Shown here: positions 8,094 to 20,107 of the stretch, one piece after another
Layout of the letters: every line of letters starts with the position of its first letter
How positions within the stretch are numbered: position 1 is the first letter of the stretch
Sequence record: DRR378314_107
Length of the DNA: 29,432 bases
Direction: 5' to 3' (one strand)
Made by a program: the position numbers and the translations under genes
Notes under the pieces: generated by a model
Database searches by the model: none
Seen by the model: only the letters and a program-made list of their open reading frames with translations
What the model was told of the DNA's origin: nothing

Positions 8094-8834
8094 TCAGGCG
8101 GTGGCTTTGAGCCAGTCGGTCAGCTCGTCGGCGCCACCGATACGCTGGCCTTCGATGTACACCTGCGGCGTGGTGCCGGCGCCGGTGACGGCGGCCAGGG
8201 TGCTGTAGCTCAGGCCACGGTTGCCCAGTTCGATTTCCTCGAACTTGAAGCCGGCGTCGCGCAGTTCGCGCTTGGCGCGGGCACAGTGCGGGCAGCCCGG
8301 CTTGGTGAAGATGGTCACCCGTTGGGGCAGGGACGCTTCACCGTTGATGTGGGTCAGCATGGTGTCGGCGTCGGACACTTCGAACGGGTCGCCGGGCTTC
8401 TCCGGCTCAATGAACATCTTCTCGATCACGCCGTCCTTCACCAGCATGGAATAGCGCCAGCTGCGCGGACCGAAACCCAGATCCTGCTTGCCGACCAGCA
8501 TGCCCATCTTTTCGCTGAACTCGCCGTTGCCATCCGGAATGAAACGGATGTTGTTGGCGTCCTGATCACCGGCCCAGGCGTTCATCACGAAGCCGTCGTT
8601 CACCGACAGACAGATGATTTCGTCAATGCCGTTGGCTTTGAACACCGGCGCCAGTTCGTTGTAACGCGGCAGATGCGTGGACGAACAGGTCGGCGTGAAC
8701 GCGCCGGGGAGGGCGAACACCACTACGTTTTTGCCGGCGAACAGATCATCAGTGGTAACGTCTTTCCACTCGTTCCCTTCGCGGGTACGGAACGTAACTT
8801 CAGGTACTTTTTCGCCTTCACGATTCTCCAACAT
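8094..8834 (-). CDS. Hybrid peroxiredoxin (Prx5)-glutaredoxin
   Basis: [14 protein letters not shown] peroxidatic motif, [16 protein letters not shown]-terminal Grx domain with CPHC and TTPQVYI..IGG. Confidence 0.95.
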
Positions 8835-8914
8835 TAAATGCTTCCTCCTGTTCGGTGCATCGGAATGTGGCTGAATGATGAGAGCATGGTAGCCACCGCG
8901 CCCTCATCAATAAA

Positions 8915-8951
8915 ACGGATAGTTTCTATATAGCGAATAGCCCTTCGCTAT
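8915..8951. promoter_or_regulatory. OxyR-type binding site upstream of the Prx-Grx gene
   Basis: ACGG-N7-CTAT(8926)-N7-ATAG(8937)-N7-CTAT(8948): three perfect tetramers at the ATAG-N7-CTAT-N7-ATAG-N7-CTAT spacing. Confidence 0.8.
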
Positions 8952-9400
8952 CAATCGCCCAGGTGGGCGGACAGCATCCAGGCGGCCTTCTCGTGGATCT
9001 CGATACGCTCGCTGGCGATTGCCGCGGTGCCTTCGTCCTCATGGCCGGCGGCCAGCTTGAGCACCTTGTTGGCGCGCTCCGCCACGATGCGATGGTCCGC
9101 GGTCAGCGTCTTCAGCATTTCCGTGGCGTCCGGCTCGCCCTCGGCGTCCTTCACGGAAGACAGACGGGCGAAGGCCGCGTAGCTGCCCGGCGCTTTATCG
9201 CCCAGGGCGCGAATGCGCTCCGCGATGGTGTCCACCGCCGTCGCCAGCTCGGTGTACTGCTGTTCGAACAGCAGGTGCAGGCTGTGGAACATCGGGCCGG
9301 TGACGTTCCAGTGGTAATTGTGGGTTTTCAAATACAGGGTATAACTCTCCGCGAGCAGTTTACTCAGCTCCTGGGAGACTTCTTTGCTGTGTTCAATCAT
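8951..9400 (-). CDS. dps: Dps DNA-protection/ferritin-like protein
   Basis: KTHNYHWNVTGPMFHSLHLLFEQQY...DTIAERIRALG...HEKAAWML. Confidence 0.96.
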   Translation of the reverse strand: MIEHSKEVSQELSKLLAESYTLYLKTHNYHWNVTGPMFHSLHLLFEQQYTELATAVDTIAERIRALGDKAPGSYAAFARLSSVKDAEGEPDATEMLKTLTADHRIVAERANKVLKLAAGHEDEGTAAIASERIEIHEKAAWMLSAHLGD

Positions 9401-9474
9401 GGTGCTCTCCTTTGCGGGAATGTCCGGATTGACTCCAATACCTTCACGCTAAGCCCTTGGGGTCGGAACCGCGA

Positions 9475-9511
9475 ACTCATTTTCGATATACTCGTCATAG
9501 CTTGGTGCAAT
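9475..9511. promoter_or_regulatory. Degenerate OxyR-type site upstream of dps
   Basis: ACTC-N7-ATAT-N7-ATAG(9497)-N7-CAAT, same register as the site at 8915. Confidence 0.5.
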
Positions 9512-9601
9512 CGAACCTTTATCCGCGCTTTGCAAGCCGCAAAGCCAGCGCTCATGATGCGCGTTTTCAGTGAACGGCGGGTTAACACTCAAGGAACGTG
9601 T

Positions 9602-10279
9602 ATGACGACACCTTCTACACCCTCCGCGTCTTCCGAGCCGGGTCAGCCGGACTACCCTCTGATCGAAGAGGTGATCAACAGCCTCACCCATGCCATCGGC
9701 CTGCTGCTGAGCATCGCCGGCACCGCGGTACTGGTGGCGTCGGCCAGCGTCCAGGGCGACCCCTGGAAAATCGTTTCCTTCAGCGTGTTCGGCGCCAGCC
9801 TGGCGCTGCTGTACGGCGCCAGCATGCTCTACCACGGCAGCCGGCGCCCGCATTGGCGGGCGCTCTACAAGATGCTGGATCACTGCGCGATTTTCGCGTT
9901 GATCGCGGGCACCTATACGCCGTTTCTGCTGGTCAATATGCGCGGCACCGTGGGCTGGACCCTGTTCGGCGTGATCTGGGGGCTGGCGTTCACCGGTATC
10001 GTTCTGAAGCTGCGTTTCGGTAACCGCTACAAACTGGCCCGGGTGGGGATTTATCTGGCCATGGGCTGGCTGGTGATGTTCGCGTCCGGGGAGCTGATGG
10101 ACACGGTCAGCCCGTTGGGCTTCTGGCTGCTGCTCGCCGGCGGCATCACCTATACCGCCGGCGTGGTGTTTTATCTGGCCGACCGGCTGCCGTACAACCA
10201 CGCCATCTGGCATCTGTTCGTGGTGGGCGGCAGTGTCTGCCATTTCTACGCTATCTACTACGCGGTGCTGCCCGCCTGA
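9602..10279 (+). CDS. Hemolysin III / PAQR-family membrane protein (YqfA/TrhA-like)
   Basis: EEVINSLTH, SMLYH, LDHCAIFALIAGTYTP, HAIWHLFV..S.CHF; start moved to ATG 9602 after AAGGA. Confidence 0.92.
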   Translation: MTTPSTPSASSEPGQPDYPLIEEVINSLTHAIGLLLSIAGTAVLVASASVQGDPWKIVSFSVFGASLALLYGASMLYHGSRRPHWRALYKMLDHCAIFALIAGTYTPFLLVNMRGTVGWTLFGVIWGLAFTGIVLKLRFGNRYKLARVGIYLAMGWLVMFASGELMDTVSPLGFWLLLAGGITYTAGVVFYLADRLPYNHAIWHLFVVGGSVCHFYAIYYAVLPA

Positions 10280-10285
10280 CGGGCC

Positions 10286-10762
10286 TCAGAGCAGCGCTTC
10301 GATGTCGTCGGCGAGCTTTTCCGGCTTGTCTTTCGGCGCGTAGCGCTTGACCACGTTGCCGTCGCGATCGACCAGAAACTTGGTGAAGTTCCATTTGATC
10401 GCCTCGGTGCCCAGCAGGCCCGGCGATTCCGATTTCAGAAACTTGAACACCGGATGGGCGTTGTCGCCGTTGACGTCCACTTTTTCGAACATCGGGAACG
10501 AGACGCCGTAATTCTTCTCGCAGAAGGCGCCGATTTCCTCGGCCTCGCCGGGCTCCTGGCGGCCGAACTGGTTGCAGGGGAAACCCAGTACTTCCAGCCC
10601 CCGGTCGGCGAAGTTGGCGTACAGCTTCTGCAGCCCTTCGTATTGCGGCGTGAAGCCGCACTTGCTGGCGGTGTTCACCACCAGCAGAACCTTGCCCTTG
10701 TAGTCGGAGAGGGGCTTTTCCTCGCCGTTGAGCGTGCGTGCCTTGTAGTCGAAAAGACTCAT
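10286..10762 (-). CDS. Glutathione peroxidase (Cys type, BtuE/Gpx-like)
   Basis: VVNTASKCGFTPQY, LGFPCNQFGRQEP, IKWNFTKFLVD; start MSLFDY at 10762 after AAGGAG. Confidence 0.95.
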   Translation of the reverse strand: MSLFDYKARTLNGEEKPLSDYKGKVLLVVNTASKCGFTPQYEGLQKLYANFADRGLEVLGFPCNQFGRQEPGEAEEIGAFCEKNYGVSFPMFEKVDVNGDNAHPVFKFLKSESPGLLGTEAIKWNFTKFLVDRDGNVVKRYAPKDKPEKLADDIEALL

Positions 10763-10829
10763 GGACCTTCTCCTTATCAAAGGGCGGTAACGCCGGCGGG
10801 CACTCAGGCCCGCCGGCCCGGCGGTGCGC

Positions 10830-11504
10830 CTAGTCCGAGTATAGCGCGTCCACCACCGCTTTCGCGGTCACTTCGCTGGACGGCGGGTTCTGACCGGTGA
10901 CCAGGCGCCCGTCGGTGACCACCTGGGGCTCGAACTTGCCCTTGTTGTGGATCTCCGCGCCCAGCTCCTGGAGACGGCTTTCCAGCAGGAACGGCATCAC
11001 CTCGTCGAGGCCCACTTCGCGCTCCTCTTCGTTGGTGAAGCAGCTCACACGGCGGTCCTTGACCAGCGGCACGCCGTTTTCGTCGCGCACCCCGACCAGC
11101 GCCGCCGGGCCGTGGCAGACCGCGCTGATTACACCGCCCTGGGCCCAGGTACGCTCCAGCACGCCGGCCACCAGCGGGTTGTCGGGCATGTCGAACATGG
11201 CGCCGTGACCGCCGGGCACGAATACCCCGACGAAGCCGTCTTCCCAGATTTCCTCCAGGGGGCGGGTGTCCTCCAGCTCGGCGATGGCGTCCTTCCACTG
11301 CTCTTTCTGCTCATCGTCGGGCACCGAGCGGGGATCGATCGGCACCTTGCCGCCGGTGGGGCTGGCGACACGCACCGGCACCTTGTTGTCGCGGAAAATC
11401 TGGTAGGGGATCGCAAACTCTTCCAGCCACAGACCGGTCTGTTGCCCCTGACCCATCTGCGATGCGCTGGTGACCAGCATCAGAAGTGGCTTGTCCAAAT
11501 TCAT
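10830..11504 (-). CDS. DJ-1/PfpI (Hsp31-like) type 1 glutamine amidotransferase domain protein
   Basis: TGLWLEEFAIPY, PGGHGAMFD, AVCHGPAAL, LVTGQNPPSS. Confidence 0.92.
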   Translation of the reverse strand: MNLDKPLLMLVTSASQMGQGQQTGLWLEEFAIPYQIFRDNKVPVRVASPTGGKVPIDPRSVPDDEQKEQWKDAIAELEDTRPLEEIWEDGFVGVFVPGGHGAMFDMPDNPLVAGVLERTWAQGGVISAVCHGPAALVGVRDENGVPLVKDRRVSCFTNEEEREVGLDEVMPFLLESRLQELGAEIHNKGKFEPQVVTDGRLVTGQNPPSSEVTAKAVVDALYSD

Positions 11505-18424: not shown

Positions 18425-19054
18425 ATGGCCCAAGATCCGACCCAGCGCCTTCTCCACCAGGCCCGCTTCCTGAAAAGCGCCCAGAACGTGGAACAGTGCC
18501 CCCCGGACGCGGGTTTCGAGGTGGCCTTCGCCGGCCGCTCCAACGCCGGCAAATCCAGCGCCATCAACCGCCTCACCGGCCAGCGGACCCTGGCGCGCAC
18601 CTCCAAGACCCCGGGCCGCACCCAGCTGCTGAACTTCTTCGAGCTGGACGAGGAGCGGCGCCTGGTGGACCTGCCCGGCTACGGCTACGCCAAGGTGGAC
18701 AAGGTGACCCGCCAGCAATGGCAGCGCGACCTGGACGATTATCTGGCGCGCCGGCAAAGCCTCACCGGGCTGGTGCTGCTGATGGACATCCGCCATCCGC
18801 TCAAGGATTTCGACCGTCTGATTCTGGAATGGTCGGCGCGCGCCGGCATGCCGCTGCACCTGCTGATCACCAAGGCGGACAAACTCAAGTACGGCGCCGC
18901 CAAGAACACCCTGCTGCAGGTGCTCAAGGACGTCCGCGATCACCCGGCGCCGCTCAGCGCCCAGCTGTTTTCCGCCACCAACGGCAGCGGCTGCGACGAG
19001 GCCTGGCGCCAGCTCGGCACCTGGTTGGCGGTGCCGCCGGACCCGGCGGGCTGA
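18425..19054 (+). CDS. engB: Ribosome biogenesis GTP-binding protein YihA/YsxC
   Basis: [28 protein letters not shown]. Confidence 0.97.
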
Positions 19055-19175
19055 CCGGGTCCGTCACTCCGGCGACGTTTTACGACACCGCTCTGGCGCA
19101 GGGGCGGCACCGGCCAAAGCGTGCCGACTCAGTGTAACCCACTGACATAAAACGTCTTTTACCGATTTCCAAAAA

Positions 19176-19192
19176 CAGGCATGCCTCTTGCT
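19176..19192 (+). promoter_or_regulatory. Putative sigma54 (-24/-12) promoter
   Basis: CAGGCATGCCTCTTGCT: GG(19178)-N10-GC(19190) with TTGC; IHF-like TAACCCACTGAC at 19135 and palindromes further upstream. Confidence 0.6.
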
Positions 19193-19243
19193 TCAGTGAA
19201 CGGCAAGAAGAAGGAAGAGGGGAAGTCCCACTTTTCAGTGGGC

Positions 19244-19296
19244 AAAAAAAATCCCTGGCAGCAAGTGGGGGAAGGGAACGACTGCGCTGCCAGGGA
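19244..19296 (-). terminator. Rho-independent terminator of the candidate sRNA (may also end Mrp read-through)
   Basis: TCCCTGGCAGC...GCTGCCAGGGA-TTTTTTTT on the minus strand. Confidence 0.8.
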
Positions 19297-19393
19297 GGCT
19301 TGCCGCCCCAGCCTCCTGGGGGAGAGACCGGGGTGTCCAGAAGCTACGAACCGGTGAGGGTACTGGGGGATCGGGGGTACCGGTCCGTAGCTA
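19244..19393 (-). ncRNA. Candidate ~150-nt sRNA with C-rich loops (positional analogue of Spot42/ErsA/sX13)
   Basis: Long 5' stem (19342-19355/19379-19392), internal hairpins, terminator stem (19252-19262/19286-19296) followed by U8; sigmaE-like promoter just upstream; convergent on engB. Confidence 0.72.
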
Positions 19394-19398
19394 TTGAT

Positions 19399-19428
19399 TA
19401 GGACTGGCCGCCTTTGGAAAAAGTTTCC
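19399..19428 (-). promoter_or_regulatory. Putative sigmaE/AlgU promoter for the sRNA
   Basis: Minus strand GGAAACTT-N16-GTCCTA, ending about 6 nt before the first stem. Confidence 0.55.
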
Positions 19429-19494
19429 ACGTCCTAATACCTTTTACAAATTTCATAATTCCTGCACAACAAGCACTATTAAACCCGCTTGCGG

Positions 19495-19827
19495 CTACTG
19501 CTTCCAGGGGCCGCCGCGGGTATCTTCCCGGCGCTTCAGATTGCGGTGCATGGCCGCCTTGGCCAGCATGTGCGCCGATACCGGTGCGGTGATAAACAGG
19601 AACAGAACGATCAGCACTTCCTGGAGCTGCAACGCCCGCTCCTGCCAGGAGAAAAACAGCAGCGACCCGAGAATGGTGCCGCCCACGCCCAGGGTGCTGG
19701 CTTTGGTCGGGCCGTGCAGACGCAGATAAAAATCCGAAAGCCGCACCAGGCCGATGGACCCCACCAGCGCGAACACCGCCCCGACCAGAATGAAGGCACT
19801 GACCAGAAATTCAACGATCTCGTTCAT
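19495..19827 (-). CDS. mrpG: Mrp/Pha Na+(K+)/H+ antiporter subunit G
   Basis: GLVRLSDFYLRLHGPTKASTLG, FITAPVSAH; start MNEI at 19827. Confidence 0.93.
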   Translation of the reverse strand: MNEIVEFLVSAFILVGAVFALVGSIGLVRLSDFYLRLHGPTKASTLGVGGTILGSLLFFSWQERALQLQEVLIVLFLFITAPVSAHMLAKAAMHRNLKRREDTRGGPWKQ

Positions 19828-19837
19828 AGTGTCGTCC

Positions 19838-20107
19838 CTACTCGATGATGTCGCCACGCAACATGTATTTGGCCACCGCCACGGTGCTCACGAAGCCGAT
19901 CAACGCGATCAGCATGGCGGCCTCGAAATAGAGCTTGCTGTCCGAGGAAATGCCGTACAGCACGATCAGCCCGATGGTGTTGATGTACATGGTGTCCAGG
20001 GCCAGGGCCCGGTCCGGCAGCGTGGGCCCGCGCAACAACCGGTACAGGTTGAGCAGCAGGGCCAGCACGAACAGCCCGAAGGCAATCGTCAGCGCGGTCT
20101 CTAGCAT
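19838..20107 (-). CDS. mrpF: Mrp/Pha antiporter subunit F
   Basis: RLLRGPTLPDRALALD...GFVSTVAVAKY..RGDIIE. Confidence 0.93.
   Translation of the reverse strand: MLETALTIAFGLFVLALLLNLYRLLRGPTLPDRALALDTMYINTIGLIVLYGISSDSKLYFEAAMLIALIGFVSTVAVAKYMLRGDIIE

Follow-up and report, generated by a model that had tools for sequence, protein, structure and literature searches.

The DNA analysed here is a stretch of 29,432 nucleotides (nt) from sequence record DRR378314_107, which in its full length is referred to as the window. Between engB, encoding a GTPase, and mnhG, the last gene of the mrp/pha antiporter operon, it contains a gap of 440 nt, and on the minus strand of this gap lies a gene for a small RNA (sRNA) that is found throughout the Alcanivoracaceae and is probably related to the Pseudomonas sRNA ErsA. 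Its elements and the two flanking genes are as follows.

19392–19244, minus strand: sRNA gene of about 149 nt; the RNA forms three hairpins with C-rich loops, the last of them a terminator followed by U8
19421–19428, minus strand: −35 box GGAAACTT (hexamer AAACTT at 19426–19421; GAACTT in most relatives)
19399–19404, minus strand: −10 box GTCCTA (TCCTA at 19403–19399), 16 nt after GGAAACTT, or 17 nt after AAACTT in the measure used for the relatives
19392, minus strand: transcription start, the A before GCUACGG, placed by homology to the start measured in another species, strain B-5
19342–19392, minus strand: hairpin 1, 14-bp stem and 23-nt loop ACCCCCGAUCCCCCAGUACCCUC (19378–19356)
19334–19341, minus strand: single-stranded linker UCUGGACA, 8–9 nt, at the site of the long U-rich seed of ErsA
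19306–19333, minus strand: hairpin 2, CCCCGGUCUC(U)/(G)GAGGCUGGGG with loop UCCCCCA, from folding and RNAalifold
19297–19305, minus strand: linker CGGCAAGCC, GGCAAGC in 25 of 26 copies
19244–19296, minus strand: intrinsic terminator, 11-bp stem (19296–19286 with 19262–19252), 23-nt loop with UUCCCUUCCCCCAC, and U8 (19251–19244)
18425–19054, plus strand: engB (GTPase), convergent neighbour (Pfam MMR_HSR1, 1.9e-17)
19495–19857, minus strand: mnhG, with which the mrp/pha antiporter operon ends; same strand as the RNA, upstream of it and not part of it (Pfam PhaG_MnhG_YufB, 2.8e-28)

Folding of the region 19400–19244 gave three hairpins with a minimum free energy of −69.5 kcal/mol against −48.3 ± 3.6 kcal/mol in 200 dinucleotide shuffles, none of which was equally stable (z −5.88). 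The stem of hairpin 1, AGCUACGGACCGGU/ACCGGUUCGUAGCU, pairs 19392–19379 with 19355–19342 and includes one G-U pair. A UCCCCCA-like word is exposed by all three loops: CCCCC occurs twice in loop 1 together with CCC, once in loop 2, and once in the terminator loop, again together with CCC. The terminator hairpin with its U8 tail is a usual Hfq-binding module; of the Hfq-dependent base pairing that characterises ErsA, this is the only element seen in the RNA. A first-pass annotation of this DNA, made from the letters alone, had already read the 440-nt gap, both promoter boxes, the 14-bp stem, the loops and the U8 at these minus-strand positions, and the C-rich loops that it described are present in all three hairpins. 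Less durable was a GGAGGCU/AGCCUCC hairpin that it placed before the terminator, which can be drawn in the window but is not kept by the relatives, as 78.8% of the alignment cells are paired and five of its seven pairs are broken in 3–13 of the 23 distinct sequences. In the middle hairpin that the relatives do conserve, CCCCGGUCUC is paired with GAGGCUGGGG, so the annotation's second C-rich segment corresponds to the 5′ arm plus the loop of hairpin 2. A simple scan for sigma70 promoters and terminators found no sites at the locus, the terminator part coming up empty because its rule permits only loops of 3–8 nt. Right after the U-run there is one more small hairpin, CCCACUG-AAAA-GUGGG (19226–19243, minus strand), which within the genus undergoes the compensatory change CCUGCUG/CAGCAGG (loci L008–L013).

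The structure was examined for covariation in an alignment of 26 copies, 23 of them distinct and 19 from one genus, with an effective sequence number of 1.81. RNAalifold placed 34 pairs in three helices, with standard pairs in 97.1% of the cells. Changes on both sides were registered in 21 of the 34 pairs, as compared with 7.2 ± 1.9 in column shuffles (0/500 reach 21), and sliding of the 3′ partners by 1–3 columns left at most 8 such pairs. Compensatory change affected 11/14 pairs of hairpin 1 (96.8% of cells paired), 6/9 of hairpin 2 (95.6%) and 4/11 of the terminator (98.8%), while the core of the first loop, CCCGAUCCCC, was unchanged in all 26 copies. A larger alignment was made from the 66 copies that score at least 95 bits, in 100 loci searched, with a covariance model built from Alcanivoracaceae copies only (hereafter R1). 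It has 26/34 compensatory pairs against 16.8 ± 1.6 in shuffles, a figure that leans towards the model because the alignment was fitted to it. In distant species similarity starts at the −10 box and stops at the U-run, so that conservation outlines the transcript. No open reading frame (ORF) of at least 20 amino acids (aa) is present on the minus strand within the RNA. On the opposite strand there is an ORF of 58 aa (19181–19357, plus strand) with no Pfam match, which was ruled out as a gene because close relatives are separated by 1–3-nt indels that break its frame.

Judging by its conserved motif, the gene would have a promoter of its own of the extracytoplasmic function (ECF)/sigmaE (AlgU) type. 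The consensus of such promoters is GGAACTT-N16-TCAAA in E. coli and GAACTT-N16/17-TCTGA for AlgU. The 66 copies have 64 distinct upstream regions, and 62 of these contain GAACTT, with no more than one mismatch, at a fixed place (exact in 48), followed after 17 nt (49 regions) or 16 nt (13 regions) by TCNNN. The −10 words are TCCTA (20), TCATA (11), TCTTA (8), TCTCA (8) and others, all at a fixed distance to the stem, and the sequence of the spacer between the boxes varies freely. An RpoE orthologue scored above the NCBIfam cut-off in all five genomes tested, and upstream of rpoE itself the boxes GGAACTT-N16-TCACA / GAACTT-N16-TCTGA were found in genomes G020 and G155.

The transcript itself is already in print for a congener. 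A map of sRNAs in Alcanivorax (Alloalcanivorax) dieselolei B-5 obtained by differential RNA sequencing (dRNA-seq) lists it as sRNA4758272 (Wei et al. 2022, PMC9788540), which means that the first-pass annotation was wrong in calling it unannotated. According to the accessible parts of this publication, on which all statements about B-5 rest, sRNA4758272 is intergenic, flanked by B5T_04289 (GTPase) and B5T_04290 (antiporter subunit G); it is strongly conserved within the genus, and some species carry it twice. Its Table S2 gives a length of 143 nt, the class TSS (transcription start site, that is, primary start) and a sequence that opens with AGCUACGGACUGG. The first base aligns with window position 19392, one base off the start near 19393 that had been predicted. 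It is the same gene, aligning base for base apart from a few substitutions and loop insertions of 1–3 nt; the differences are that its annotated end (4758130) lies before the U-run and that the window comes from a different species. The fold, the covarying pairs and this start together bear out the discrete minus-strand gene that the letters had suggested.

The promoter of the B-5 copy was called 'Sigma 24 & Sigma 70' by iPromoter-2L (PMC9788540, Table S5). Its level in transcripts per million (TPM) was 4169 on hexadecane (rank 6 of 549) and 1307 on acetate (rank 34), and DESeq2 returned for the same comparison a log2 fold change (log2FC) of 3.94 with an adjusted P value (padj) of 2.4e-14 (Table S16). 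Throughout Tables S16 and S17 the DESeq2 log2FC values exceed the log2 TPM ratios by about 2.3–2.5, so that calls of alkane induction depend on normalisation and the induction of this RNA is 3-fold to 15-fold according to the one chosen. In the accessible parts of the paper the words 'ErsA', 'C-rich' and 'RpoE' do not occur, and no name, structure, family or function is given there for an RNA that in this strain is among the most abundant sRNAs on alkane. A literature search found the name sRNA4758272 only in this paper and its preprint and no relevant title pairing ErsA with Alcanivorax. The same B-5 spacer also holds a second, weakly expressed sRNA on the plus strand, sRNA4757961 (136 nt, PMC9788540); in the window a counterpart, if present, would fall within 19055–19243 on the plus strand.

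BLASTN detected the stretch in every one of 25 genomes from the window's family and not in any of the 16 genomes that represented 16 other families of the order. With R1, whose E-values are rough, the RNA was found in 40 of 41 evenly sampled family genomes, including all 32 that are at least 90% complete, and the sole genome missing it is 76% complete. The window has a single copy (181.8 bits), and two copies were found in none of eight genomes of its own genus; two copies are present in 11 of the 41 genomes, usually arranged in tandem 370–530 nt apart, with a separate promoter for each. When one genome per species was scanned for the motif, 111 stretches came up; the titled ones among them that R1 confirmed belong to Alcanivorax, Alloalcanivorax and Alcanivoracaceae, the remainder being chance matches in unrelated phyla. 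Weak R1 matches (26–36.5 bits) were also registered in other families away from polA and engB, at L031 1501–1606, L032 1501–1592, L033 1501–1618 and L034 1501–1593. The RNAs matched there are short, with terminators and CCCCA(A)G loops, and could be either additional relatives or C-loop sRNAs of no kinship.

engB adjoins the RNA at all seven Alcanivoracaceae loci that gave a tblastn match, and in the window the RNA sits 102 nt 3′ of mnhG, on the same strand and facing engB. Genes for DsbA, cytochrome c4 and cytochrome c5 precede engB; the same dsbA-cytochrome c4-cytochrome c5-engB order is that of P. aeruginosa. Among the 31 ORFs of the window scanned against Pfam none is polA (DNA_pol_A), and that side is occupied by the mrp operon. 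The assignment of this place to the ErsA/Spot 42 locus in the first-pass annotation is supported for the engB side; polA is not a neighbour. At L023 (genome G022) the sRNA gene is inverted together with its promoter (1439–1582), so that it is codirectional with engB and faces mnhG.

At gathering thresholds Rfam gave no matches in the window and none in five outlying loci. The earlier statement that no match to Spot 42, ErsA or sX13 is recognisable is nonetheless not supported, since covariance models connect the RNA with ErsA in both directions, below threshold. The ErsA model (RF01719, Pseudomon-1), run over 151 genomes of the order, exceeded its cut-off in one family only (3/3 genomes, 121–134 bits) and produced weaker full-length matches in several other families. 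The 41 Alcanivoracaceae genomes yielded 16 matches at E ≤ 0.1, and 13 of them, including the best 11, fall on this RNA; in G020 the single match is one of the two RNA copies (37.6 bits, E 1.2e-5 for that genome). In the reverse direction R1, with filters off, gave 23.0–26.8 bits to three Pseudomonas ErsA genes and 13.8–32 bits to six ErsA-like genes, and all of its matches of at least 20 bits in those 26 kb lie within the ErsA arrays. Its sole genome-wide match in G155 (24 bits) is located between polA and engB behind GAACTT-N16-TCTCA. Both covariance-model alignments pair hairpin 2 and the terminator, loops included, with those of ErsA, whose terminator loop is CCCCUCCCC.

The surroundings and general plan agree as well. 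ErsA, the ErsA-like RNAs and the Alcanivoracaceae RNA are all convergent to engB, which adjoins ErsA in this way at L156 and L157 and ErsA-like genes at L159, L161, L162 and L035, and polA lies upstream of such genes at L156–L159, L161, L164 and L035. All three have a promoter of the type GGAACTT-N16-(G)TCNNA and three hairpins, with loops CCCCCA(A/G)G in hairpin 2 and of the CUCCCCC type in the terminator, and measured from the −35 box they extend over a similar length (162–187 nt). For ErsA, control by sigma22 is stated in the accessible part of PMC13613067. With reciprocal sub-threshold matches to ErsA, the description of the RNA as lineage-specific is not supported either. One of the ErsA-like loci, L162 of genome G036 (another family), contains three tandem elements beside engB (1155–1227, 1433–1545 and 1676–1788), and a further copy is on another contig. 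Away from the sRNA locus, G010:C68:27283-27393 responds both to the ErsA model (23.1 bits) and to the anti-hemB model (22.1 bits) and may be another C-rich RNA.

It is the 5′ half that differs. Between hairpins 1 and 2 the ErsA types share an unpaired, conserved stretch, CUACUCCUUAUGUGUUUAGUGUUGGCA, in whose place the Alcanivoracaceae RNA shows just UCUGGACA; it also lacks the CUACUCCU..GUGUUGGCA that is conserved in the ErsA-like RNAs; and its hairpin 1 has a much larger, 23-nt C-rich loop with no counterpart in Pseudomonas ErsA. As far as the accessible parts of two papers tell, the functional seed of ErsA is the U-rich unstructured region of nt 26–56 (PMC5819304), and its 10-nt oprD-binding stretch comes just after stem-loop 1 (PMC13613067). 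The ErsA targets algC, oprD, amrZ, mlaA and fleN are bound via the part that is absent from the Alcanivoracaceae RNA. Locus, promoter and 3′ scaffold appear to have been retained through an exchange of the seed, and we regard common descent with ErsA, followed by replacement of the seed, as likely. Membership in the Rfam ErsA family is not claimed, as the scores lie below its threshold and the seed feature is lacking.

Several other families were tried. The best sub-threshold Rfam match on the window was anti-hemB (RF02837, Burkholderia), at 21.2 bits (E 0.014) with 49.5 needed. The anti-hemB RNA is similar in its C-rich loops and terminator. As a family for the Alcanivoracaceae RNA it was rejected, its match being non-specific because only 2 of its 98 model matches in the 41 family genomes lie on the RNA; G001 alone has five other loci with 19.9–25.5 bits. 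The 6C RNA (RF01066) was likewise rejected (20.5 bits against 47 needed, E 2.7). Spot 42 (spf) of Enterobacteria shares the slot between polA and engB, convergent to engB (PMC3771888, accessible part, and general knowledge); it differs in its CRP-cAMP control and in having no C-rich loops, and its model gave no match on the region.

The best documented working analogue is sX13, although as a family (RF02232) it was also rejected, with no match at E ≤ 10 on the region and none of its three matches in the 41 family genomes on the RNA. The accessible part of PMC3771888 describes three stable stems with C-rich apical loops of 4C, 4C and 5C, Hfq-independent repression of mRNAs with G-rich motifs near the start codon, and a location at the polA locus, which is compared there with the Spot 42 locus. 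The Alcanivoracaceae RNA has the three stable stems with apical C-rich 4C/5C loops. It differs in that sX13 belongs to Xanthomonadaceae, is always downstream of polA and has an unstructured 5′ region, while no polA adjoins the RNA described here. The sX13-like architecture that the first-pass annotation saw is thus real as regards the three C-loop stems, but largely a trait of the ErsA group, because in ErsA-like RNAs of other families hairpin 2 and the terminator have these CCCCC loops too.

Starting from the structure, conservation and promoter motif found here and from the own start and high expression in print for a congener, we consider it moderately probable that the RNA is a strongly diverged counterpart of the ErsA group, encoded by an independent Alcanivoracaceae gene and acting in trans by pairing of its C-rich loops. 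An independent gene with its own ECF/sigmaE (AlgU)-type promoter and intrinsic terminator would then produce a trans-acting sRNA of about 149 nt, which would accumulate when the sigma factor is active or, in any case, during growth on alkane. By analogy with sX13, the exposed UCCCCCA-type loops may pair with G-rich stretches at or near the ribosome-binding sites of several mRNAs and in this way, as in sX13, lower their translation. From the ErsA group the RNA would have retained the slot convergent to engB, the type of promoter, a layout of three hairpins, and C-rich loops in hairpin 2 and in the terminator; the U-rich seed would have been lost. Sigma factor, pairing mode, targets and homology with ErsA are our inference, as are envelope-stress control and pairing with G-rich ribosome sites, both put forward already in the first-pass annotation.

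What is new here is modest: the family assignment, the covarying structure and the family-wide occurrence with tandem duplication. Alcanivoracaceae are among the main marine hydrocarbon degraders, and placement beside ErsA gives a testable hypothesis of a stress-sigma-driven regulator of envelope or surface functions. The RNA would clearly exemplify an sRNA gene in which the part that recognises targets is exchanged but chromosomal slot, promoter and 3′ scaffold persist, and it suggests that Rfam Pseudomon-1 is a small visible slice of a wider engB-linked sRNA group across the order.

A number of observations weigh against the kinship with ErsA, the sigma-dependent expression or the loop pairing assumed here. 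RF01719 stays below its gathering score of 50 bits everywhere in the family (15.8 bits in the window, 37.6 at best, 0/41 genomes over it), part of the model scores comes from the terminator and U-run, which any sRNA model rewards, the U-rich seed of ErsA is absent, and polA is not adjacent in the window. As for the promoter, the window's own −35 hexamer is AAACTT instead of GAACTT, the strict box was not found upstream of algU in three Alloalcanivorax genomes, and in 2.8 Mb of G001 GAACTT-N16/17-TCNNA was no commoner than scrambled words (11 sites, 5 intergenic). In B-5 the TPM ratio between hexadecane and acetate is only 3.2-fold, and algU mRNA was flat on hexadecane (log2FC 0.08, padj 0.81) while the sRNA rose (PMC9788540). 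With a mucA-like gene up by 1.57 in the same condition (PMC9788540), these values, taken from the accessible tables, neither show nor exclude activation of the sigma factor. Of the traits of sigmaE-dependent envelope-stress sRNAs such as MicA, RybB, MicL, VrrA and ErsA, which need the envelope-stress ECF sigma factor for their transcription and repress mRNAs for envelope proteins, the promoter motif is the one seen here.

The search for targets also gave a null result. It covered 2.8 of the 3.14 Mb of G001 with crude gene calls (2057 ORFs chosen by G+C content at third codon positions, GC3). Duplex energies of the four single-stranded parts with 2041 start regions were about those of mid-gene controls, and for part L1 energies of −22 kcal/mol or lower were reached in 103 start regions and 106 controls, which leaves no discriminating power. 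The 12-nt complement of loop 1 occurs in these 2.8 Mb only at the RNA gene itself. GGGGG at positions −22 to −2 was found in 121 of 2041 calls (about 6%) against 10 of 2041 controls, a count inflated because the choice of starts favours such sites; the share resembles the 5% given for Xanthomonas in the accessible part of PMC3771888. The 58 scanned genes with TGGGGG/GGGGGA are a mixed set of flhD, flhC, three GGDEF genes, two TonB receptors, an autotransporter, a secretin, acyl-CoA dehydrogenases and others. No target is supported. As an observation in its own right, flhD, flhC and the three GGDEF proteins are among the G001 genes with GGGGG at the start site (L166–L305, for example L289:17775-18703).

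The explanation that competes best is convergence: a lineage-specific Alcanivoracaceae sRNA would have arrived independently at ErsA-like control and an sX13-like shape, the model matches reflecting merely a shared terminator and C-rich composition. We hold this to be unlikely. RF01719 scores all below the gathering score, a 5′ half (hairpin 1 loop, no U-rich seed) without counterpart in Pseudomonas ErsA, and BLASTN hits in 0/16 genomes outside the family are what it would predict. Other sRNAs with C-rich loops are 6C, RsaE and CcsR. Such RNAs arose in many phyla, with sX13 as the documented case (accessible part of PMC3771888). Against it stands the concentration of 13 of 16 RF01719 matches, the top 11 included, on one gene of about 150 nt, compared with 2/98 for anti-hemB, likewise a model of a C-rich hairpin and terminator, and 0/3 for sX13. 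Convergence is further opposed by the reciprocal R1 matches on ErsA itself, by an engB neighbour, orientation and promoter type identical to those of ErsA, and by the intermediate form at polA-engB in G155.

Descent from the ErsA group with pairing to mRNA start regions has a second competitor, in which the three C-rich loops would bind a protein, a G-rich ligand or another RNA, making the RNA a sponge or sensor rather than mainly a regulator of start regions. It could account for the invariance of CCCGAUCCCC (26/26), which is tighter than a loose anti-Shine-Dalgarno seed needs, for the lack of a second site complementary to 12 nt of loop 1 in the 2.8 Mb of G001, and for predicted duplexes that are not enriched at start sites. 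To our knowledge, no C-binding RNA chaperone or ligand has been described for the group, and partners for ordinary pairing are available, GGGGG standing at ribosome-binding positions in about 6% of the crude calls (121/2041). Similar loops act by base pairing in sX13 (PMC3771888, accessible part). Taken together, this makes the sponge or sensor improbable. A more special form of the idea, which we rate as a long shot, is that the C-rich loops are a sensing module for a G-rich ligand, common from ErsA to the Alcanivoracaceae RNA, in which the classical seed was dropped and the module tripled. Cyclic di-GMP is the obvious candidate ligand because it disturbs pairing of ErsA with its target in vitro. 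If true, an abundant stress-promoted RNA would read or sequester a second messenger during hydrocarbon growth.

Finally, a cis element of the neighbours, be it a 3′ end processed from mrp operon transcripts or a mnhG-engB terminator working in both directions, is hardly credible. In its favour, the gene follows mnhG on the same strand at 102 nt and faces engB, and its terminator could also stop mrp transcripts. On the other side, the B-5 5′ end was classed by dRNA-seq as TSS and not as a processing site (PMC9788540, accessible tables), the promoter motif is kept while the flanks diverge, the gene is inverted relative to mnhG in G022, relatives in other families follow polA and not mrp, and in many species the gene is doubled in tandem with a promoter in front of either copy.

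Two minor observations concern the occurrence of the stretch in raw data and the remainder of the window. The stretch is present in 20 sequencing runs, nine of them recorded as RNA, and the four checked are contigs without ends, strand or level; in run X4 a contig of 940 nt over 18934–19873 is deeper than the neighbouring contigs, a depth not readable as expression. Elsewhere in the window, at 8094–11504, there is a redox-defence cluster on the minus strand, which consists of a peroxiredoxin-glutaredoxin fusion (8094–8834), a glutathione peroxidase (10286–10780) and a DJ-1/PfpI protein (10830–11504).

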